DNA of 64,000 bases, taken from NCBI GenBank assembly GCA_964446825.1, contig CAYUQR010000004.1:22828-86827 (forward strand). Direction: 5' to 3'. The notes below the pieces were generated by a model. It was given only the letters and a program-made list of their open reading frames with translations, searched no databases and was not told where the DNA came from. This document shows, piece after piece, positions 53,115 to 62,690 of the stretch. The position numbers and the translations under genes were made by a program. How positions within the stretch are numbered: the stretch's first letter is position 1; every line of letters begins with the position of its first letter. This stretch comes from an uncultured Rikenellaceae bacterium (GTDB lineage: Bacteria; Bacteroidota; Bacteroidia; Bacteroidales; VadinHA17).

Positions 53115-54383
53115 TTAATCCATCTCTTTTGAAATCGCCATTGCGGCTATTGTCCCGTCAGCAACAGCAGTAGTTATCTGACGATATTTTTTGCTTATCA
53201 CATCTCCCACAGCATAGACTCCCGGTATGTTTGTCCTCATATCTTCATCGGTCTTTATATATCCCCACCTGTCGAGAATCAGTTTGTCCTTAAAAAGGTC
53301 AATATTGGGTTTCATTCCGATAAAAATAAATACTCCGTCACTAAACAGTTTCCGGCGCTCTTTTATTTTTAGATTTTCCACTTCTGTTATCATCTTATCT
53401 CCTTCCCTGGTGAACGATCTTGGTTCATTCTCAAACAGAATGTTAATTTTCGGATTTTTGAATACTTTCTCCTGAGCCTGCTTATTTGCTGTCAGCTTAT
53501 CAAACTGGTGAACGATTGTCAGTTTACTTGCAAACCTGGTAATATATTCCGATTCTTCGACAGCTGAATTACCACCACCAATAACAATAACCTCTTTGCC
53601 ATCAAAGTATTTTGCGTCGCAGGTAGCACAGTAAGAGATCCCCTTACCTTTAAGTTCCCTTTCACCCGGGGCCCCTGTAAGATTCGGAGTTGTACCGGTA
53701 GCTATAATGATCTTTTTTGCTTTTACGGTTTCATACTCATCTATTAAAACCTCTTTTTTATCAAGATCAACTTTTGTAATATCAACTGCTACTTTGTATA
53801 CTGTGCCGCACAGTTTAGTCTGCTCACTCATGTTATGTGAAAGCATATAACCCGCCTGAGGCTCAATAAAACCCGGATAATTTGAAACTTCATGAGTAGT
53901 TGACACATGTCCGCCCGGCAATGCAATATCGATAAGGACAGTATTGACTTTAGACTGACACAGGTATAAACCGGCTGTAAGGCCTCCGGGACCTGCGCCA
54001 AGAATTATAACGTCAAACTCTGAAACAGAAGGTTTAACATTGTTTTTTATCTCTTTTACTCTTTTTTCCGGCAACATATTATTCAGGTTGCGAATAATAT
54101 CTATCCTCTTGATTCCGCCCACCAGTCTTTCGCCGACCTCTTTCCCATTGTTGAAAAACAATAGTGTGGGAGAACCATTAACACCCAGCTTTTCAGCCAA
54201 ATCCCTATTTTGCTGGCGAAATATTTTAAGGAATTTTACATCTTTTCCATATAATAATGATAAGTTCTCATATTTTGATGCCAATGCCTCGCAGGGAGGA
54301 CATTCAGTTGAATAAAAATCAAGGACCACTTTGCCTGACTGCAATACCTCACTTTCAAATTCTGTTGAATTTATCTCTTTCAT
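53115..54383 (-). CDS. Thioredoxin-thioredoxin reductase fusion (Trx N-terminal)
   Basis: ECPPCE Trx domain; GAGPGG, CATCD, GGGNSA, AVGD..ITTAVADG. Confidence 0.9.
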   Translation of the reverse strand: MKEINSTEFESEVLQSGKVVLDFYSTECPPCEALASKYENLSLLYGKDVKFLKIFRQQNRDLAEKLGVNGSPTLLFFNNGKEVGERLVGGIKRIDIIRNLNNMLPEKRVKEIKNNVKPSVSEFDVIILGAGPGGLTAGLYLCQSKVNTVLIDIALPGGHVSTTHEVSNYPGFIEPQAGYMLSHNMSEQTKLCGTVYKVAVDITKVDLDKKEVLIDEYETVKAKKIIIATGTTPNLTGAPGERELKGKGISYCATCDAKYFDGKEVIVIGGGNSAVEESEYITRFASKLTIVHQFDKLTANKQAQEKVFKNPKINILFENEPRSFTREGDKMITEVENLKIKERRKLFSDGVFIFIGMKPNIDLFKDKLILDRWGYIKTDEDMRTNIPGVYAVGDVISKKYRQITTAVADGTIAAMAISKEMD

Positions 54384-54413
54384 ATATTTTAAAATAATTA
54401 TACCTGTTAAAAT

Positions 54414-55745
54414 TTATATGGCGACATTCTCAAAATAAGCCGAAAAACCAAGTTCCAGTAGTTCCTTCACAGGCCTGCAGTCGGTAGAACATATCTCGCC
54501 GGTTCTGTTCCTTGCAACCGATCCACATCCTCCACCACATGCCAGCCGGACAGGGCAGTCTTTGCATTCAGGAATAGATGTTACATCGCGTCTTTCCCAC
54601 TCCTCAATTATAGAATCTCTGCGTGTTACAACAGGATAGAATGTACCCAATGATTCATCTGATTTCCCGACTGTGGCAGTGCATGAGTAAATCTGACCTG
54701 TATAATCAAAAGCCCACTCAGTTTTACATGCGGGACAAGAATCAAAAAGAGGGTCAGGGAGATCTCCATTCTCTGAAATAAATTTTGCTATAGAATATGC
54801 AGGTTTGTAAAATTCAAGAATATGGGGATGCACTTTAGTAAGTTCATAGATTGCCTCAAAGATTGCTACTCTGTCGAACAGTTTATCAGGATCAGACTGA
54901 CAATGATGCAACTCATAATTCCGGCCCATCTGGCTTTTGAAGAAAGCACTTTTTGTCCAGCCTTTGTCAATAGCAAACTGTGCCAATTCAGGAAGGTTAC
55001 TGATATTTTCTTTATCGATTACCATCCGGAGATTTATATCAATTTTGTTTTCCAGACAGGAATCTATACCTCTCACAATCTTGTTAAAGGTACCTTCTCC
55101 TCCTTTCAGAAAACGGCGCCTATTATGGACTTTTTCAGTACCATCGAGGGTGACCTGGATTTCACGAATTTTCCCTTTTCCAAGTATCTGAGAATATTCT
55201 TCCAGAAAATACCCATTGGTCACAAAGCTTACTTCAAGATCAGATTCGACGGACCTTTCAAGTATTTGTGATATAAGTTCTTTTTGTTTTGGACTATTAA
55301 GAAGCGGTTCCCCTCCGAAAATTGTGATATACTTCTTGCGCCCGGCAAACTCCCTGCTGACATAGCTGAAAAATGTATCGATAACTTCCGTACTCAGTCC
55401 CTGAACAGGATTTGTATATTGATCCTGGTAACAATAGGTACAGGCAAAGTTGCAGCTGTAGTTTGTCACAAAAAATATCTGTATTTCATCCTTGTCGCGG
55501 GAATCAATAAAATCGAGGTATCTTTCACGATAAATACGTGTTTCTTCTGTTTCATCAATCAAATATCCCTTTTCTATCAATTCACTCATGAAATCATCAT
55601 CAGTCTTTTTCCCACTTTTGATCATCTCAACCTTTCTCGCATCATCAACGGACAGAATATCAGCATTACCTGTAAGAAGGTTGATGATGAAATAGTTTTC
55701 AGAATCCCTGATCCTTGAAAAAATATTGAATTTTGAATATTCCAT
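54414..55745 (-). CDS. Radical SAM/SPASM peptide maturase with RRE-like N-terminus
   Basis: CNFACTYC, FGGEPL; SPASM CPAC..YSC..CKDC..CGGGC..C; ~80-aa winged-helix-like N-terminus. Confidence 0.9.
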   Translation of the reverse strand: MEYSKFNIFSRIRDSENYFIINLLTGNADILSVDDARKVEMIKSGKKTDDDFMSELIEKGYLIDETEETRIYRERYLDFIDSRDKDEIQIFFVTNYSCNFACTYCYQDQYTNPVQGLSTEVIDTFFSYVSREFAGRKKYITIFGGEPLLNSPKQKELISQILERSVESDLEVSFVTNGYFLEEYSQILGKGKIREIQVTLDGTEKVHNRRRFLKGGEGTFNKIVRGIDSCLENKIDINLRMVIDKENISNLPELAQFAIDKGWTKSAFFKSQMGRNYELHHCQSDPDKLFDRVAIFEAIYELTKVHPHILEFYKPAYSIAKFISENGDLPDPLFDSCPACKTEWAFDYTGQIYSCTATVGKSDESLGTFYPVVTRRDSIIEEWERRDVTSIPECKDCPVRLACGGGCGSVARNRTGEICSTDCRPVKELLELGFSAYFENVAI

Positions 55746-55824
55746 TTAATGATATAAAAATATCAGACGAGATCGTTCTAAAATGAATGAATTTTGTGAT
55801 TGACCAATTTTTTTGCAGAGATAG

Positions 55825-55923
55825 TTAATCGTGACAGCCGACAACTGTTTTAGAAGTTTTGGCGCAACACTGGGCGACTTTTGAACCGGCCCTGTTTTCT
55901 TTCTTTTTAATCAGACTTTTCAT
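55825..55923 (-). CDS. Putative RiPP precursor peptide, 32 aa
   Basis: Hand translation MKSLIKKKENRAGSKVAQCCAKTSKTVVGCHD; directly upstream of the rSAM/SPASM gene; missed by the ORF track. Confidence 0.8.
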   Translation of the reverse strand: MKSLIKKKENRAGSKVAQCCAKTSKTVVGCHD

Positions 55924-55933
55924 AATTTATCAT

Positions 55934-56392
55934 CTATTTTAATAAAACATCATTTACACCTTTTTCCAGGTTTTCTTTCGACACAAACCCTACAACAAGC
56001 TGTGGCTTCCCTTTCACAGGTATGAATACCAGGGTAGGCAGCCCGCTTATTCCAAGTGATTGGGTGACTGCTCTTTCCTGGTCAGTATTGACCTTGTAAA
56101 CAACTATTTTACCGGCATACTCTTTTGCAACTTCCTCAACCAGGGGAGAAAGTACACGACACGGAGGGCACCAGTCAGCATAAAAATCAATAATGGCCGG
56201 CTTGTCTCCTTTATAATTCCATACCTTGTCAGATTCATAATCAAAAACATATTTCCTGAATGTATCGTTTGTGAGAGGCATAACTATTTCGCCGGAAGCC
56301 AGTTTTGTACCTTCGGCAGGCTTATTCCCTGATTTACAACCTGATATTAGCAGAGATAAAGTGAGCGCTGTTAAGACAATGTTCTTTCTCAT
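55934..56392 (-). CDS. Thioredoxin-like lipoprotein
   Basis: Lipobox LISGC, DFYADWCPPC, GISGLPT. Confidence 0.9.
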   Translation of the reverse strand: MRKNIVLTALTLSLLISGCKSGNKPAEGTKLASGEIVMPLTNDTFRKYVFDYESDKVWNYKGDKPAIIDFYADWCPPCRVLSPLVEEVAKEYAGKIVVYKVNTDQERAVTQSLGISGLPTLVFIPVKGKPQLVVGFVSKENLEKGVNDVLLK

Positions 56393-56404
56393 GTTCTTAT
56401 ATTT

Positions 56405-57061
56405 TCAGTTTTTACAACCACAACCACCTTTACCCGATGGTTTTTCTCCGGCAACAGTCCAGGATGAGACTCTTGTCATTCCTTTTTCGTAAGGTTCTGA
56501 TTCTTCAATGATCTTAATTGAACCAAACCCGGCGTTATGAAGTTGTTCCAGGTATTCGTCTCGAGTTACAGAACCTGCCCAGCATTCTGAAATTGCAACA
56601 GGGTCATTTCTGAATTCATCAGCAATGGGCTCAATAGCATAAATATCACTTACCACAAATCTACCGCCATTCTTGAGTATCCTGAAGACCTCATTCCATA
56701 CAGCCTGTTTGTCAGAGGCATGATTGATTGTACAATTTGAAATAACAAGATCAGCAGTATTATCTTTGAGATTAAGTTTTTCAAGCGAACTCTGAATAAA
56801 GTTCACATTATTGATTCCAAGCCTTTCTGCTGTGCTTACGGCTTTCCTGATCATACCACCTGAAATATCGATGCCGTAAACCTTACCCTTTTCCCCGACA
56901 GTTTCTGAAAGTCTTAAAACATCTGTCCCCCTTCCGCTGCCAAGATCAACGCATATCTCTCCGGGCAATGCCCCGGAATAATTAATTGCTCCTCCGCAAG
57001 AAAGGCAGCATGTTGATTCTGCAAGATCGCTGTATCGTTTATTGATTTCAGTATATTCCAT
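56405..57061 (-). CDS. ArsM-like SAM-dependent methyltransferase
   Basis: CCLSCGGA, DLGSGRG, ISNCTIN, SECWAG, C-terminal CGC; likely start 57061. Confidence 0.75.
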   Translation of the reverse strand: MEYTEINKRYSDLAESTCCLSCGGAINYSGALPGEICVDLGSGRGTDVLRLSETVGEKGKVYGIDISGGMIRKAVSTAERLGINNVNFIQSSLEKLNLKDNTADLVISNCTINHASDKQAVWNEVFRILKNGGRFVVSDIYAIEPIADEFRNDPVAISECWAGSVTRDEYLEQLHNAGFGSIKIIEESEPYEKGMTRVSSWTVAGEKPSGKGGCGCKN

Positions 57062-57145
57062 TCTGTTTTTTTTTACCACTCCGAATTTTTAGGAGCTTAT
57101 TTCAATCTTCAAAGATGTTACTTTTAAAAAAGTGGCGCAAAGATA

Positions 57146-57233: not shown

Positions 57234-57665
57234 ATGAGTTCAATTTTTAAAAATGATCTTGATGATGATCGCCTTTCAGAGCTTTTCCGGAGTGATGAAA
57301 AATGTTATGAATTCCTGGCCAACCTGAAATGGAGTGAGGGTTTCACTTGCCGTAAATGCGGCAATAAAAATTATTGTCAGGGCAAGACACCATATTCAAG
57401 GCGATGCACCAAATGCAAGGCAGAAGAATCAGCTACCTCCGGTACTATTTTTCATAATTGTAAATTTCCTGTAAGCAAAGCTTTTTACATTGCATATAAT
57501 GTATGTAAAGGGAAAGAAAACATTTCCACATATGAATTTGCCCGACGGTTATCGCTCAGGCAGATGACCTGCTGGAATTTCAAGGCCAAGATTCAGAATG
57601 CGCTTCAGGAAATTGATTCACTTACCGAGAGGGAAAAATCATCGATACAAAAAATTCTTTCATAG
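57234..57665 (+). CDS. Stand-alone IS1595-type zinc-ribbon/HTH protein (no DDE domain)
   Basis: CYEFLANLKWSEGFTCRKCG, RRCTKC..SATSGTIFH; no catalytic domain or IRs seen. Confidence 0.7.
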   Translation: MSSIFKNDLDDDRLSELFRSDEKCYEFLANLKWSEGFTCRKCGNKNYCQGKTPYSRRCTKCKAEESATSGTIFHNCKFPVSKAFYIAYNVCKGKENISTYEFARRLSLRQMTCWNFKAKIQNALQEIDSLTEREKSSIQKILS

Positions 57666-57694: not shown

Positions 57695-58594
57695 TCAGGC
57701 AAGATACATATTTATCAGTTGTTCATAGAGTTCCTGTTTACCGCTTATGGTTACAGGTTCCCCTGCCTTAGAAGCTATTTCCCTTAATTTTTCAAGAGTA
57801 AGTTTCCCTTCTTCAAAGTCTTTTCCCGATCCTTTATCAAAAGACTCGTATCTTTTCTTACGCATCTGAAGATATTCACTCTCTTTCAATATCGTATCCG
57901 CTATTACAAGCGATCTTGCGAAAGTGTCCATTCCGCTTACATGAGCAATAAATAAGTCTTCATTATCGGTGGAATTTCTTCTTACTTTGGCATCAAAATT
58001 GATTCCGCCATGTGTAAATCCTCCGGCCTGCAGAATTACCAACATAGCCTCGGTTATCTCATAAATATTGGTTGGGAACTCATCGGTGTCCCATCCATTC
58101 TGATAATCACCTTTATTGGCATCAATACTGCCTAACAGGCCTGCATCGGCCGCAACCTGAAGCTCGTGCATAAAAGTATGTCCGGCAAGTGTGGCATGAT
58201 TAACTTCAATATTCAGTTTAAAATCTTTATCAAGGCCATGATGACGCAAGAATCCTATAATTGTGGCAACATCAAAATCATACTGATGTTTCGAAGGCTC
58301 CATGGGTTTTGGCTCAATAAGGAATGTTCCGTCAAAGCCAATTTTTCTTCCATAGTCGCGTGCCAGAGAGAGCATCAAGCCTCTGCTTTATCCTATCATC
58401 ATTTTTTGCATTTTCCCATGGATATAACCTTGTAGCATTCCCAAATGGATCAGAACCGTCGCCACAGAAAGAATGCCAGTATGCTATGGCAAATCTGAGA
58501 TGATCCTTCATCGTTTTACCCAATACGATCTCGTCGGGGTTATACCATTTAAAAGCCAGTGGATTTTTAGATTTCCTGCCTTCATATTCGATCA
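57695..58594 (-). pseudogene. xylA: Xylose isomerase, 5' truncated with an internal frameshifting deletion
   Basis: [26 protein letters not shown] joined out of frame to [29 protein letters not shown]. Confidence 0.9.
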
Positions 58595-58595
58595 G

Positions 58596-58660
58596 CCCCC
58601 TGCCCCCCTAAAGAGGGGTTAATTCTGTACTATTTTTAACCCCCTTTGGGGGGTCGGGGG
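58596..58660. repeat. G/C-rich bipartite palindrome (REP-like)
   Basis: CCCCCTGCCCCCCTAAAGAGGGGTT..AACCCCCTTTGGGGGGTCGGGGG. Confidence 0.7.
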
Positions 58661-58669
58661 TTTTAATAT

Positions 58670-59368
58670 CTATTCATGAGACCTTCTTTCCCTGTAAATA
58701 CAATCTTTCATATCGCAGATTTTGCAGGTATAAGCAAGTCGTTTAACTTCCTTCCCGATGCCAATAATACCGCTCACTGATTTAACAGGATTCATAAGGG
58801 CTGATTCAGTTAACCGGATACCACAAAAGTTATCCGGGACCAGCTGGAATAGTTTATGTTGTTCTGCCACATCCCAACCACAATATCCCGGACTGTAACG
58901 GTTAGTAATCTTCATTCCTGAAGCCAGGGCCTGGTCTTCAAGATTAAGCTGCATGAGATCGGCTGCCGCCTCAACAATTTCACTTCCTATAACATCGAAG
59001 ATATAACCTCTGAGCAGATCTTTCTCAATCATTGCTTTCCTGCTGTTCAGTCCGATCTCTTCTCCTGCAGTGCAGATGAACACCGCAATTGACTCAGACT
59101 TTTTTAACTGCCCAAAAATAATTTTACCAATATCGAATCTGATATTACTGATCTCAGCAGATTGTGTTTCCTTATGGAACCTGATATCATTAAAAATGTT
59201 ATACTGAGCTTTTATATTGCAGATATCGTGTGCTTCCATTAATAATTCATTAATGAGACCGGTAACCAGTCCACGGTCCTCCCCTTCTTTGTATCCTATA
59301 ACTTTCTCAATAGCGGGGACGCTCAGCTTCAGATCCTTCAAGTCAAACTCAAATGTCCTGTTTACCAT
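58670..59368 (-). CDS. B12-dependent methionine synthase activation-domain protein
   Basis: AVFICTAG, RYSPGYCGW, MNPVKSVSGIIG, CKICDMKDC. Confidence 0.85.
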   Translation of the reverse strand: MVNRTFEFDLKDLKLSVPAIEKVIGYKEGEDRGLVTGLINELLMEAHDICNIKAQYNIFNDIRFHKETQSAEISNIRFDIGKIIFGQLKKSESIAVFICTAGEEIGLNSRKAMIEKDLLRGYIFDVIGSEIVEAAADLMQLNLEDQALASGMKITNRYSPGYCGWDVAEQHKLFQLVPDNFCGIRLTESALMNPVKSVSGIIGIGKEVKRLAYTCKICDMKDCIYRERRSHE

Positions 59369-60833
59369 TCTTTGTAGTAGCTTTTAATACTTTGTTATTA
59401 TCAAGGCCTGATTCAGTCACAATTCTCTGAACTATGGATTCCCATCCCATAGTCATGATATGAATTCCATTCACTCCTTTTTTATCTTTTATCCTGTCAA
59501 TCATCTCAAGAGCAACCTGAACACCTTCCTCTGCTCCCGATTCCCCGGCCTTAACCATGCGTGACATAATCTTTTCCGGAACCCTGACCCCGGGAACTCT
59601 TTCGTTGAGATATTTAGCTGTTTTATAATTCTTCAAAGGTGCAATTCCAATCAGAATAGATACCTTACCAAGGATATTTCTTTTATCAAGCTGTTCAAGC
59701 CATAAGTCGAGGCGGTCGGGATCAAATATAATATTTGTCTGAAAAAACTGAGCTCCTGCGTTCACTTTTTTATGGTCCTTTATAGCCTGAAGTTCAGGGT
59801 CTGAGGCAAAAGGAGTCGTTGCGGCTCCGAGAAAAAATTCAGGAGGTTCTTTAATACTACTTCCATCAAGATAAAGGCTATCGTCTCTCATTCTTCTAAG
59901 GATCCAGAGCATCTGCACAGAGTCAATATCAAAAAAATTCATATTCCCGGTTGGAGGAAGGCCAATAACCGGACTGTCGCCTGTCAGGCAAAGAATATTC
60001 CTTATTCCAAGGTATTTCAGTCCAACAGCTATAGATTGCAGACTGTTTCTTGTTATATCACGGGCGACTATTTGATATACTGGTTCAGTATTGTTATCAT
60101 CTGCTACTTTACTGCATATCAGACTCGACATATTTGGCTTGCCTGCAGATGAGTTCATAAAATTAACCGCATTTACAAAAGGGCTTACTGACTTAATATC
60201 CTTTATTAACTTTACAGTCATCGTGTCATGTGGGGATGTTACCTCGGTAGTCACAACAAATTCACCATCCACAAGTGCCTTCTGAAGACCAGAAACTGAT
60301 TTTATGTTTTTTGCCTGATGATATTCTGAGTCACCCTGCCACCAATCTGGCTGTCGGATCTTCCTGAAAACGTTGTCCCATAATATTTCTTTTCTGACTT
60401 TACCTTTAAATATGAGTCCACTTATGAACTTCCAGGTACCTGTTTTAATTATCTGCCGGGCAACATCACTCCATGTTCCTGTTCCGGTTTTATTCCAATC
60501 GAGTGGAGGTAAGACTTCAAGAAGAGTTTCCTGCCTGCCAGTTTTTAATGCCCTTCTATAAATATTGTACCAGACGCATTTACGAGTTTCGTCGATATAG
60601 CAATTTTTCTCCGGGGTTATATTGCCGCAAGGGCCGTTTCTTAATCCTTTCGGGCATTCCATCGGACATATGAAAGCTGTCTCCTGAAGGAGACAATTCC
60701 CACACATGCGGCATCCAAATAATGGGCCTTTAATGCTGAGTTCTGCTTTAGCCAGTATACGGCTTACAAATTTTTCGCGTTTGAAAGGATAAAAGGCCGG
60801 TTGCCATCTGCGTGCAGGTTTGATGCCAGACAT
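59349..60833 (-). CDS. metF: Methylenetetrahydrofolate reductase with fused N-terminal Cys-rich MetV/MTHFR_C domain
   Basis: CRMCGNC..CPMECPKGLRNGPCG; TTEVTSP, ILCLTGD, AGAQFFQTN. Confidence 0.85.
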   Translation of the reverse strand: MSGIKPARRWQPAFYPFKREKFVSRILAKAELSIKGPLFGCRMCGNCLLQETAFICPMECPKGLRNGPCGNITPEKNCYIDETRKCVWYNIYRRALKTGRQETLLEVLPPLDWNKTGTGTWSDVARQIIKTGTWKFISGLIFKGKVRKEILWDNVFRKIRQPDWWQGDSEYHQAKNIKSVSGLQKALVDGEFVVTTEVTSPHDTMTVKLIKDIKSVSPFVNAVNFMNSSAGKPNMSSLICSKVADDNNTEPVYQIVARDITRNSLQSIAVGLKYLGIRNILCLTGDSPVIGLPPTGNMNFFDIDSVQMLWILRRMRDDSLYLDGSSIKEPPEFFLGAATTPFASDPELQAIKDHKKVNAGAQFFQTNIIFDPDRLDLWLEQLDKRNILGKVSILIGIAPLKNYKTAKYLNERVPGVRVPEKIMSRMVKAGESGAEEGVQVALEMIDRIKDKKGVNGIHIMTMGWESIVQRIVTESGLDNNKVLKATTKNGKQDI

Positions 60834-60868
60834 AATAGGTCAGATTCAAGAATAAAAAAGAAAATCAA

Positions 60869-61711
60869 TTAGTTAACTCCTGATTGAAAATTTTCCAAAA
60901 ATCGTACTGCATAATCGTCCCTGCAAAGGATCAGATCAGTTGCTCTGACGATAGGGACAATCTTCTCCGGGTTTGCAATAGGGCATGTTAATCCGTTAAG
61001 AATAGATAACACCATAAATGCTGAGTTTAAAACCTCCCTGTTTGGCAAACCGAATGAAATATTACTGGCACCCTGAGTAATGTTCAGTCCGAGTTTCTGA
61101 TGGACAAGTCTGATAGTATCCAGTGTAACGATACATGCCCGGGGATCAGCACTAACTGCCATTACCAAAGGATCGATAATCACATCATTTTCATTGATCC
61201 CGAGCTTGACTGCCCTTTCCAATATCTTTTCTGCAATGATGAGTCTTTTTTCAGGATCATTTGTAATTCCTTCATCATCCATGGTCAGTCCTATAATAGC
61301 AGCTCCATACTCTCTGGCCATTGGCAACAGAGTATTTAAAGACGCCTCTTCTCCGTTTACGGAATTAATAAGACATTTCCCTCCCGCTACCTTAAGTGCA
61401 GCTTCTATAGCATCAGGATTCGGGGAATCGAGGCAAAGCGGAATATCAAATTTTTCTTTTACAGCCAGAACAGCCGCAGGGAGCAACTTCACGTCATCAA
61501 CTCCAGGAAACCCCACATTTATATCGAGTACATCAGCCATTGCCCTGATCTGTTTGTCAGCCAGGTCGAGCATATATTCAAAATTCCCAACTTCGAGCGT
61601 TGATACCAGTTTTTTCTTTCTTGTGGGGTTTATGCATTCACCAATAACAACTACAGGACCGTTGGTATCAATAACCACTTCCTTTGTTTTTCCTTTGAGA
61701 ATTGTCTGCAT
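60869..61711 (-). CDS. Pterin-binding methyltetrahydrofolate:corrinoid methyltransferase (AcsE/MetH pterin domain)
   Basis: IGECINPT, LDINVG, CLDS, INSVNG, IIDPL, GASNISFGLP. Confidence 0.9.
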   Translation of the reverse strand: MQTILKGKTKEVVIDTNGPVVVIGECINPTRKKKLVSTLEVGNFEYMLDLADKQIRAMADVLDINVGFPGVDDVKLLPAAVLAVKEKFDIPLCLDSPNPDAIEAALKVAGGKCLINSVNGEEASLNTLLPMAREYGAAIIGLTMDDEGITNDPEKRLIIAEKILERAVKLGINENDVIIDPLVMAVSADPRACIVTLDTIRLVHQKLGLNITQGASNISFGLPNREVLNSAFMVLSILNGLTCPIANPEKIVPIVRATDLILCRDDYAVRFLENFQSGVN

Positions 61712-61718
61712 AGTCTTT

Positions 61719-62387
61719 TTATGATACCAGCTCTTTCAGATAATTAACTGCTCCCTGAGGGTCGGGAGAATAAAAGTCAGCGCCAATCTTTTTACAATAT
61801 TCATGAGTGACAGGTGCACCGCCAACCATTATTTTTGAATCTGCATATTTCTCTTTTATTGCTGCCACAATCTTTTTCATGTTTTCCATGGTTGTTGTCA
61901 GCAATGCTGAGAGACCAACTATAGCATCAGGGTTTTCATCCAGGGCTTTAAGAAACTTTTCTGATCCTGCATCAACTCCAAGGTCGATAACCTCCCATCC
62001 ACCTCCCTCTATCATCATAGCAACCAGGTTTTTACCAATATCATGGAGATCACCTGAAACAGTACCAATAATAAATTTACCTTTTCGTTTTGTTTCACCT
62101 GATATAAAAAATGGTTTAAGATGAACCATAGCGCTGTTCATTGCTTTTGCCGACATAAGCATCTGGGGCACATAGATCTCTTTTCTGCTAAACTTATTGC
62201 CAACAGCAGCCATGGCAGGGATAAGGGCATTTTCAAGTATCTCATCTGCTTTGATTCCCGCATCCAGGGCTTTTTTAGTCAGCTCATCAGCTCCTTCCAG
62301 GTCTTTCATCGCCGGGGGATAAGTTGAGGTCTTATTTATTTTCCCGAACTCCACACATTTTGCAATATTTTCAAGAATCTCATTCAT
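61719..62387 (-). CDS. Corrinoid (B12-binding) protein
   Basis: GDLHDIGKNLV, VGLSALLTTT, MVGGAP. Confidence 0.95.
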   Translation of the reverse strand: MNEILENIAKCVEFGKINKTSTYPPAMKDLEGADELTKKALDAGIKADEILENALIPAMAAVGNKFSRKEIYVPQMLMSAKAMNSAMVHLKPFFISGETKRKGKFIIGTVSGDLHDIGKNLVAMMIEGGGWEVIDLGVDAGSEKFLKALDENPDAIVGLSALLTTTMENMKKIVAAIKEKYADSKIMVGGAPVTHEYCKKIGADFYSPDPQGAVNYLKELVS

Positions 62388-62690
62388 ATTTCTAAAGTTA
62401 AAATCAGATAATAATATCGGCAGAACAAAAATGATGTTTTATTCCATCTGCATCACCAAAATAATTCATTTTTTTTATTTTCAGTTATATTCTTTTAATT
62501 ATTTGCATGCCTCGTTTAATCCGGCTATATTTTGATTTCTTTAATTTCTATATATCCATGTAATTCAAAATATAGTATCTTTAATTCTATAATTTATAAG
62601 GTGGAGACCAGTAACCATTCAAAAAACGGGGCGGTATCGAAAAGCCAGATGAGTAGGTAAACCTAATATAATCTCAAACAATCATCTATT

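Follow-up and report, generated by a model that had tools for sequence, protein, structure and literature searches.

A conserved corrinoid methyl-transfer operon of uncultured Bacteroidales, its association with glucuronoxylan loci and a candidate partner methyltransferase

What is the function of a gene set that encodes most of a cobalamin-dependent methionine synthase, MetH, and leaves out the module that binds homocysteine? This question is raised by a 64,000-nucleotide stretch of DNA, hereafter the window, from an uncultured Rikenellaceae bacterium (GenBank assembly GCA_964446825.1, contig CAYUQR010000004.1, positions 22,828 to 86,827), in which four genes between positions 58670 and 62387 specify a corrinoid protein, a pterin-dependent methyltransferase, a MetV-MetF fusion (MetVF) and a separate protein resembling the activation domain (AD) of MetH. 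An initial annotation of this DNA proposed either a split methionine synthase or a route funnelling methyl groups, for example those of O-methyl sugars, into the folate pool. The analyses described below reveal that the operon is conserved in at least 54 species of uncultured Bacteroidales, in or beside glucuronoxylan loci and often behind a LacI-type operator. We give an even chance to the interpretation that it supplies the common half, on the folate side, of a methyl-transfer system that depends on a corrinoid, serving the anaerobic harvest of methyl groups from plant sugars into tetrahydrofolate (THF).

The assembly is a metagenome-assembled genome (MAG) of an uncultured member of the Bacteroidales, comprising 3.92 Mb in 154 contigs, with a completeness of 97.6%. 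All four open reading frames (ORFs) lie on the minus strand; in the direction of transcription, 7 nt separate the first from the second and 35 nt the second from the third, and the third and fourth overlap by 20 nt. The first (61719..62387) encodes a corrinoid (B12-carrier) protein of 222 aa and of the His-on type, with PF02607 and PF02310 domains and the motif DLHDIG (DxHxxG). The second (60869..61711) encodes a MeTr-type methyl-THF:corrinoid methyltransferase of 280 aa (PF00809), predicted to act in the role of methyltransferase 2 (MT2). The third (59349..60833) encodes the 494-aa fusion, in which a Cys-rich MetV-type domain (PF12225) is followed by the TIM barrel of a methylenetetrahydrofolate reductase (MTHFR; PF02219), and the fourth (58670..59368) a stand-alone, AD-like protein of the TM0269 type (PF02965), 232 aa in length, with four invariant cysteines. 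The pterin module, the B12 cap and Rossmann modules (with DxHxxG) and the activation module (with RxxxGY) of a split MetH are all present. The operon described in the initial annotation is real, tightly packed and co-directional, and it was correctly stated there that the window contains neither a homocysteine module nor a substrate-specific methyltransferase (MT1). A scan for sigma-70 promoters and terminators, a method unsuited to Bacteroidota, returned fewer sites than did shuffled sequences and was disregarded.

The corrinoid protein and the MeTr-type protein are nearer in score to their counterparts in catabolic corrinoid systems than to most domains of MetH. For the corrinoid protein, the best NCBIfam matches were corrinoid proteins of the MtgC/MtbC type, above MetH. 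Among solved structures it matched 1Y80, a corrinoid protein of Moorella, with 152 bits, as compared with 103 bits for the B12 domain of MetH; the other closest solved relatives were MttC and the corrinoid protein of the Desulfitobacterium O-demethylase. The top NCBIfam model for the MeTr gene was NF005719 (methyl-THF:corrinoid methyltransferase), which gave 253.5 bits, below its cut-off of 259. Its product scored 129 bits with 4O0Q (Desulfitobacterium) and 128 bits with 2YCI (MeTr), as against 88–121 bits with MetH pterin domains, the homocysteine-folate fragment of Thermotoga (1Q7M, 121 bits) being close behind. The pairing of a small corrinoid protein with a pterin-binding MT2, as seen in O-demethylase and methylotrophic systems, thus appears to be encoded here. 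In the fusion protein, PF12225 covers residues 26–114 (89 of 95 model positions) and PF02219 residues 184–476 (285 of 287), and eight cysteines fall within residues 41–86 of the MetV part. Matches to solved MTHFRs were weak (31–37 bits); the combination of a MetF barrel with a Cys-rich MetV module is nevertheless that of a putative MetVF-type reductase.

The fourth protein matches Met_synt_B12 (PF02965) with 42 bits, against a cut-off of 25, and aligns with the C-terminal half of the MetH activation domain. In sequence comparisons (phmmer) the nearest solved structure is 1J6R, which is TM0269 of Thermotoga, and the same structure headed the Foldseek results obtained with an AlphaFold2 model of the protein (pLDDT 92.9; TM 0.74/0.86), followed by the MetH reactivation domains of Thermus, Escherichia coli and human. 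The sequence R157-x-x-P-G-Y aligns with the RPAPGYP motif of the genome's own MetH. An activation-domain fold, an RxxxGY motif and a separate polypeptide of about 200–240 aa are the features of TM0269-type proteins, and the operon product shares all three; binding of S-adenosylmethionine is predicted.

It is apparent, nonetheless, that the AD-like protein differs from TM0269 in one respect. Four cysteines, C163, C215, C218 and C223, show no variation among 76 diverse homologues (33–80% identity); C163 directly follows the RxxPGY motif, and the others form the arrangement C215-x2-C218-x4-C223 in the tail. The family is a large one (4737 clusters at 50% identity, with E values up to 0.001), and both cysteine motifs were present in 137 of 145 full-length cluster representatives and in all 21 of the 21 Bacteroidales copies, which represent every gene architecture. 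TM0269 is without this signature, having Gly at the position of C163 and no C-terminal cysteine tail. In the model, that tail is the only part of low confidence, as expected for a fold that would depend on a metal. Given four invariant cysteines, the AD-like protein may carry a metal or iron-sulfur site of its own, and we infer a Zn or an iron-sulfur site; if the site were redox-active, it would allow low-potential electrons to enter directly.

Relatives of the AD-like protein were obtained from 420 species representatives, and the best 80 were examined, with our own ORF calling and clustering of the neighbourhoods. All of these best 80 derive from Bacteroidales MAGs, from peat, fens, lake sediment and soil. 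The four operon genes occur in the same order in 54 of the 71 related loci with enough flanking sequence. MetVF is missing from eight of the 71, the closest relative among them (L013, L051, L053, L071, L072, L078, L085 and L088), and MeTr from four (L027, L044, L046 and L065), so that the corrinoid protein and the AD-like protein alone are shared by all of the operon variants. By tblastn, no in-frame stops (selenocysteine) were found in the MetVF sequences of relatives, apart from one stop in a 40-residue match in L051. In a few relatives a formate-THF ligase gene directly follows the operon. A pair of genes for a GFO/IDH/MocA-type oxidoreductase and a DUF6807 protein was also observed to adjoin the operon in approximately 38 of the 80 loci (range L013–L092).

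The genomic surroundings of the operon in these relatives were also surveyed. Flanking genes include those for SusC/SusD, GH10, GH3, a CE15 glucuronoyl esterase, xylB-xylA and LacI, together with GH67 and GH115 alpha-glucuronidases, a short-chain dehydrogenase/reductase and an enolase-family dehydratase, and in several genomes the operon is placed, in the same direction, between SusC-SusD-GH10 and GH3-CE15. Of 66 loci, 18 have a LacI-type operator, TGCAATCG(G/A)TTGCA, that lies 103–203 bp upstream of the gene for the corrinoid protein, save for one weaker match at 358 bp. In about eight further loci, where the operon is inside a xylan locus, the operator is upstream of SusC. Among 301 sampled Bacteroidales genomes, 53 have the AD-like gene and 12 the MetVF fusion; GH67 is enriched in genomes with the AD-like gene, being present in 22 of the 53 and in 19 of the 248 without it.

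In the genome under study, this regulatory and genomic setting has been eroded. The divergent promoter region between the corrinoid-protein gene and a PD40/DUF5050 gene (62388..62690, no strand assigned) has lost the LacI operator of the relatives: no match to TGCAANCGNTTGCA was found there, even with up to three mismatches allowed. Alignment of the upstream regions reveals a graded decay of the operator: L028 retains an intact copy, those of L024, L038 and L043 have partly degenerated, and in L013 and the window it can no longer be recognised. A TAnnTTTG-like promoter block is conserved in the same regions. Since the operator is present in relatives but not here, the regulon link holds for the family and is not visible at this operon. 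Downstream, the order in relatives is AD, xylB, xylA. Here xylB has been lost, and xylA is a remnant on the minus strand (57695..58604) containing a 227-aa ORF that corresponds to XylA positions 210–435; by tblastn the remnant spans XylA residues ~12–89 and 213–439, with residues ~90–212 deleted. Beside it, at the edge of the rearranged locus, lies a fragment of an IS1595-family transposase gene on the plus strand (57234..57665; PF12760 zinc ribbon, NF033547 matched in part). An intact xylB-xylA pair, 63–67% identical to the relatives' copies, is located on contig C22 (G000:C22:11966-14809). The initial annotation had cited the neighbouring xylA in favour of the methyl-sugar route; because xylA is a pseudogene, that reason does not hold. 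The route itself is the better supported of the two alternatives offered there, by the xylan loci, by the operator in relatives and by the candidate MT1 described in the following paragraphs.

An MT1 of the MtaA/URO-D type was sought in the remainder of the genome, and one URO-D/MtaA-like gene, on contig C24, and one divergent URO-D-like gene, on contig C103, were found. The former (G000:C24:18645-19679, 344 aa) is the genome's single PF01208 match and is taken as the prime candidate for the MT1. It is situated 93 bp behind the LacI gene of a locus that also encodes CE15, SusD, SusC, GH115, GH3, GH10 and an MFS_2 transporter, and an operator is present 71 bp upstream of that LacI gene. With no more than one mismatch permitted, the operator motif occurs at two sites in the genome, both of them in this C24 xylan locus. 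Models of the MtaA/CmuA type score above HemE for the encoded protein, the best NCBIfam matches being models of methylcobalamin:coenzyme M methyltransferases, and the protein carries a conserved His/Asp/Cys triad (H-x-D...C) at the zinc-ligand positions of MtaA, in place of the canonical H-x-C. In a protein atlas it is labelled only as a 'uroporphyrinogen decarboxylase family protein'. That the gene encodes HemE is unlikely, given that MtaA-type models score higher, that no ferrochelatase was found in this genome and that the gene adjoins corrinoid genes elsewhere. The arrangement of LacI followed by URO-D recurs in four close relatives and in a genome of another family (G270), and in a more distant clade the URO-D orthologue lies between gcvP and a DUF6807/GFO-type pair. 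Among the loci L113–L132, a GFO-type (Oxidoreduct_C) oxidoreductase gene was observed after URO-D in the second clade, in which gcvP comes before it, and four of the loci also contain a DUF6807 protein gene.

The second candidate is the URO-D-like domain encoded on contig C103 (G000:C103:3881-6511; L133:3881-6511), where an open frame of 876 aa joins this divergent domain to a sugar-porter MFS transporter. The domain is 75% identical to a stand-alone protein of 419 aa encoded upstream of the operon in L063, and around it are genes for another sugar porter, a GFO/IDH/MocA oxidoreductase and a 3-keto-disaccharide hydrolase. The same fusion is seen in one other record only; because it could have arisen recently, in frame, or through misassembly, it is not relied upon.

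Both candidates are tentatively connected to the operon by co-occurrence and by adjacency in other genomes, and neither is encoded in the window. With a query threshold of E ≤ 1e-10, which admits weaker URO-D paralogues, URO-D matches were obtained in 45 of the 301 sampled genomes, of which 42 also have the AD-like gene, a count that is indicative only, since related genomes are not independent. Strong orthologues (E of about 1e-97 or better) are present in nine of the 12 MetVF-carrying genomes, and a URO-D orthologue was found in 30 of 40 genomes that possess an operon of the type seen in the window.

Twenty loci from other Bacteroidales families were included as a comparison set, and in these the corrinoid proteins and URO-D-family methyltransferases are consistently accompanied by the AD-like protein. 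In one architecture, represented in genomes G007, G178 and G207, a divergent URO-D gene is paired with a group that encodes a stand-alone homocysteine methyltransferase, a corrinoid protein (except in the G007 cluster, where no gene for one was detected) and the AD-like protein. All three genomes encode a full MetH and have neither a stand-alone MeTr nor MtaB; in the case of G178, which is assembled as one contig, the URO-D gene of the cluster is the only URO-D match. As the methyltransferases of these clusters are a homocysteine enzyme, which is the acceptor side, and the URO-D protein, it must be the latter that supplies the methyl group. That the URO-D protein is the sole donor-side enzyme there is the main argument for regarding its C24 orthologue as an MT1. 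A second architecture consists of successive genes for a URO-D-like protein of ~415 aa, a corrinoid protein, a URO-D protein that resembles MtaA and has the H-x-C...C zinc motif, and the AD-like protein, often accompanied by AraC, SusC/D and transporters. The URO-D-like domain encoded on C103 is an orthologue of this ~415-aa type.

Other members of the comparison set combine the same parts differently. In G298, MeTr and MetVF join the set with the homocysteine methyltransferase in one block, and in G185 they are 3 kb away; in family f50, close orthologues of the operon genes (56–76% identity) stand beside a stand-alone homocysteine methyltransferase, and no full-length MetH was seen. The G185 set (L094:3274-8053, G185:C4) neighbours genes for a pectin methylesterase, a GDSL esterase, the glucuronate isomerase UxaC and the tagaturonate epimerase UxaE, which points to methylated uronic acids. 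In G270 (L097:9247-12867, G270:C11), a glucuronoxylan locus was observed to contain genes for a stand-alone homocysteine methyltransferase, a corrinoid protein, MtaB (515 bits) and the AD-like protein, with URO-D divergent; this looks like a methanol-fed, folate-independent methionine synthase assembled from MetH-type and methanogen-type parts. Methanol was rejected as a donor in the genome studied here, because no MtaB was found in it. A CobW/HypB/UreG-type GTPase was also noted in two loci, fused to the AD-like protein in one (L103:8274-9854, 526 aa) and encoded between MtaB and the AD-like gene in the other (L105:4309-5232), which hints at a metal chaperone serving these corrinoid or zinc enzymes.

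If the operon is indeed the folate-side half of a methyl-harvesting system, the following sequence of events may be envisaged. A URO-D-family MT1, encoded away from the operon, would methylate the corrinoid protein in its Co(I) state, using a compound released by the xylan/uronate machinery, and the corrinoid protein would hold the methyl group on B12. From there the MeTr-type enzyme would hand it to THF, and the MetV-MetF fusion would interconvert methyl-THF and methylene-THF. Corrinoid protein oxidised to Co(II) would be reductively methylated by the AD-like protein, probably with S-adenosylmethionine, and so restored to Co(I), with the AD-like protein substituting for the ATP-dependent activases of classical O-demethylases. 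The methyl group could end in methionine, via the separate MetH, or, via MetVF, in methylene-THF and the remainder of the one-carbon pool. Oxidation of the methyl group to formate, as a source of energy, receives no support here, as no formate-THF ligase was found in this genome, and its assimilation would be expected instead.

The substrate favoured for this scheme is 4-O-methyl-glucuronate, which fits best with the GH67, GH115 and CE15 context; a methyl-esterified uronate or a methoxylated aromatic compound such as ferulate would be the alternatives. An alkoxide is a poor leaving group, so that a uronate methyl ester or an aryl methyl ether (ferulate) would be chemically easier. In its fullest form, the proposal would be that a new URO-D methyltransferase strips methyl groups, from the 4-O-methyl ether and/or from uronate esters, onto folate/methionine, and that a new S-adenosylmethionine-dependent corrinoid reactivase operates alongside it, with four cysteines that would provide an entry site for electrons, possibly an iron-sulfur one, in anaerobic Bacteroidales of peat, soil and sediment. 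We offer that combination tentatively, as a possibility that is somewhat unlikely to be correct in all its parts.

Several considerations weigh against the harvest of sugar methyl groups by this operon. Demethylation with Co(I) is chemically much more difficult for the alkyl methyl ethers of sugars than for aryl methyl ethers, and the lack of a detectable formate-THF ligase, just mentioned, belongs here as well. The link to xylan is only indirect in this genome, where the MT1 candidate is on another contig, the operator has decayed and xylB and xylA have been lost from the locus. A URO-D orthologue is absent from ten of the 40 operon-carrying genomes, though all ten have other URO-D-family genes, which are often ~420 aa in length and located beside a second corrinoid protein, and the co-occurrence counts given above overstate the case, related genomes being counted separately. 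All of the carriers of the operon are uncultured. Finally, two observations bear on the direction of methyl flow: the URO-D gene of G270 is beside MtaB and a corrinoid protein, as is MtaA, an acceptor-side enzyme, in methanol systems, and the f50 orthologues of the corrinoid, MeTr and MetVF genes probably operate in the direction opposite to that proposed, from methyl-THF to the corrinoid.

These last two observations are also the starting point for the strongest of the competing explanations, a biosynthetic methylase running in reverse, in which MetVF would make methyl-THF, MeTr would load the corrinoid protein and the URO-D protein, acting like MtaA, would pass the methyl group to a thiol or other nucleophile that is not homocysteine. 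The URO-D family does include the acceptor-side enzymes MtaA and MtbA, the best NCBIfam matches of the C24 protein are of that kind, and its His/Asp/Cys triad occupies the zinc-ligand positions of MtaA. The MtaA zinc motif H-x-C is, however, replaced by H-x-D in that protein; an acceptor-side URO-D enzyme would leave the clusters of G007, G178 and G207, which have neither MeTr nor MtaB, without a donor; and the placement of the URO-D gene behind a catabolic sugar regulator fits better with a catabolic role. On balance, the reverse direction is considered rather unlikely.

A split methionine synthase, redundant with MetH and relying on a homocysteine-binding partner supplied in trans, is less probable again. 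The domain set of the operon is that of MetH minus the homocysteine module, and a stand-alone homocysteine methyltransferase is encoded far more often where the AD-like gene is present (32 of 53 genomes) than where it is absent (25 of 248). In G185 and G298, orthologues of the operon genes adjoin a stand-alone PF02574 protein, and since this is the only type of homocysteine methyltransferase seen in those two genomes, which show no full-length MetH, the set is probably the methionine synthase there. For some relatives, family f50 among them, the initial annotation was probably right in this respect. It was not borne out in the present genome, in which contig C3 encodes a complete MetH of 1224 aa, with homocysteine, pterin, B12 and activation domains, and immediately after it a canonical MetF. 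The sole PF02574 match of the genome is inside this intact MetH, and a tblastn search with a relative's stand-alone homocysteine methyltransferase matched only the same gene. The MetH has an activation domain of its own (367 bits), so the partner of the AD-like protein is not, as for TM0269, a MetH that lacks one, but a free corrinoid protein. With a complete MetH and MetF on C3 and no homocysteine partner for the operon, the latter is not needed as a methionine synthase here. Full-length MetH was likewise found in all ten operon-carrying genomes that were checked, and, as described above, the corrinoid protein and MeTr are mostly nearer to catabolic systems than to MetH. The genome contains three genes for B12-binding proteins, namely the operon corrinoid protein, MetH and methylmalonyl-CoA mutase; neither MttB nor MtaB was found in it, nor, by a search for PF14574, any ATP-dependent activase of the RACo/RamA/RACE (ASKHA) type, which the initial annotation had suggested looking for.

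The weakest explanation, that the operon is a decaying leftover without a current function in this genome, would account for the lost LacI operator, the deleted xylB, the broken xylA and the adjacent IS fragment, but is very improbable, because the four ORFs are intact, tightly coupled and of full length relative to their families, the invariant residues of the AD-like protein are all retained and the gene for the candidate MT1 is undamaged, as are the operator and the LacI gene that precede it.

Further downstream in the window, a cassette (53115–57079) encoding an ArsM-like methyltransferase, a thioredoxin, a radical-SAM/SPASM maturase and a thioredoxin-thioredoxin-reductase fusion was observed. 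A functional tie of this cassette to the operon was considered and rejected, since the pseudogene and the IS fragment lie between them and such a cassette follows the operon in only about six of the 80 loci; it is probably a separate unit.

Glucuronoxylan is among the most abundant polymers on land, and about one in ten of its xylose residues carries 4-O-methyl-glucuronic acid. To our knowledge, the manner in which anaerobes handle that 4-O-methyl group has not been established. The usual hexuronate pathway needs a free 4-hydroxyl at the aldolase step, so that the methylated sugar acid could not complete the pathway before being demethylated. The operon is carried by uncultured Bacteroidales that abound in peatlands, thawing permafrost, lake sediments and soils, and whether they deliver the methyl group to folate and methionine or release it as methanol would affect the amount of substrate that reaches methylotrophic methanogens. 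The AD-like protein could, moreover, take the place of ATP-dependent activases where cobalamin methyltransferases are used in biocatalysis. A URO-D-family methyltransferase and a widespread four-cysteine reactivation protein are thereby made available as concrete candidates for work at the bench.

A search of the literature on corrinoid-dependent sugar demethylation, on the operon and on stand-alone PF02965 proteins yielded no description of this Bacteroidales system; the candidate MT1 (the C24 URO-D gene) and the four-cysteine signature of the reactivation protein are newly put forward here. In its parts, the system most resembles the four-component O-demethylases (Odm/Mtv/Mto) of acetogens, Desulfitobacterium and Methermicoccus (PMC3727330, PMC8630106). 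Common to both are a small His-on corrinoid protein, a pterin-binding MT2 that delivers the methyl group to THF (as is predicted here) and a dedicated reactivation protein, and the MT1 of the O-demethylases belongs to the URO-D/MtaA-CmuA superfamily, as does the C24 candidate. The operon differs in that a TM0269-type protein with four cysteines is encoded in place of a RACE/RamA activase, and in that MetV-MetF is inside the operon and the MT1 outside it. The host differs also, being here a fermentative member of the Bacteroidales without a Wood-Ljungdahl context, and the polysaccharide-utilisation loci of the relatives point to methyl groups borne on sugars rather than to purely aromatic ones.

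The MetVF of the operon shares with that of acetogens a Cys-rich MetV module and a MetF TIM barrel. Unlike the latter, it is a single fused polypeptide with MetV at the N-terminus, its gene is encoded together with those for a corrinoid protein, MeTr and a reactivation protein, and the host has in addition a canonical MetF beside MetH. In methylotrophic acetogens, the MetVF type also oxidises methyl-THF.

Separate MetH modules and a stand-alone activation-domain protein are likewise found in the split MetH of Thermotoga (TM0268 and TM0269), and a MetH split into three parts has been described in Phaeobacter (bioRxiv 10.1101/192971). The set analysed here differs from these in lacking a homocysteine module and in being accompanied by a complete MetH. 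In its logic, the nearest published analogue is the MtgBCD/MetH system of Ruegeria, in which a corrinoid protein is shared between glycine betaine demethylation and methionine synthesis (PMC12478193), so that a single corrinoid protein, together with a single methyl-THF enzyme working in both directions, can serve several donors and acceptors. The Rhodobacterales systems, however, use a RamA-like activase and not an activation domain.

The only sugar O-demethylation described is that of marine Bacteroidetes, in which a cytochrome P450 demethylates 6-O-methyl-D-galactose in an oxygen-dependent reaction that releases formaldehyde (PMC6292453). Both that system and the one proposed here would place, in a polysaccharide-utilisation locus, a dedicated means of removing an O-methyl group that blocks the use of a sugar. 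The two are unrelated in sequence, and if the present proposal is correct, the operon and its candidate MT1 would form an oxygen-free counterpart of the P450 route, in which the methyl group is not released but is kept on B12 and folate.

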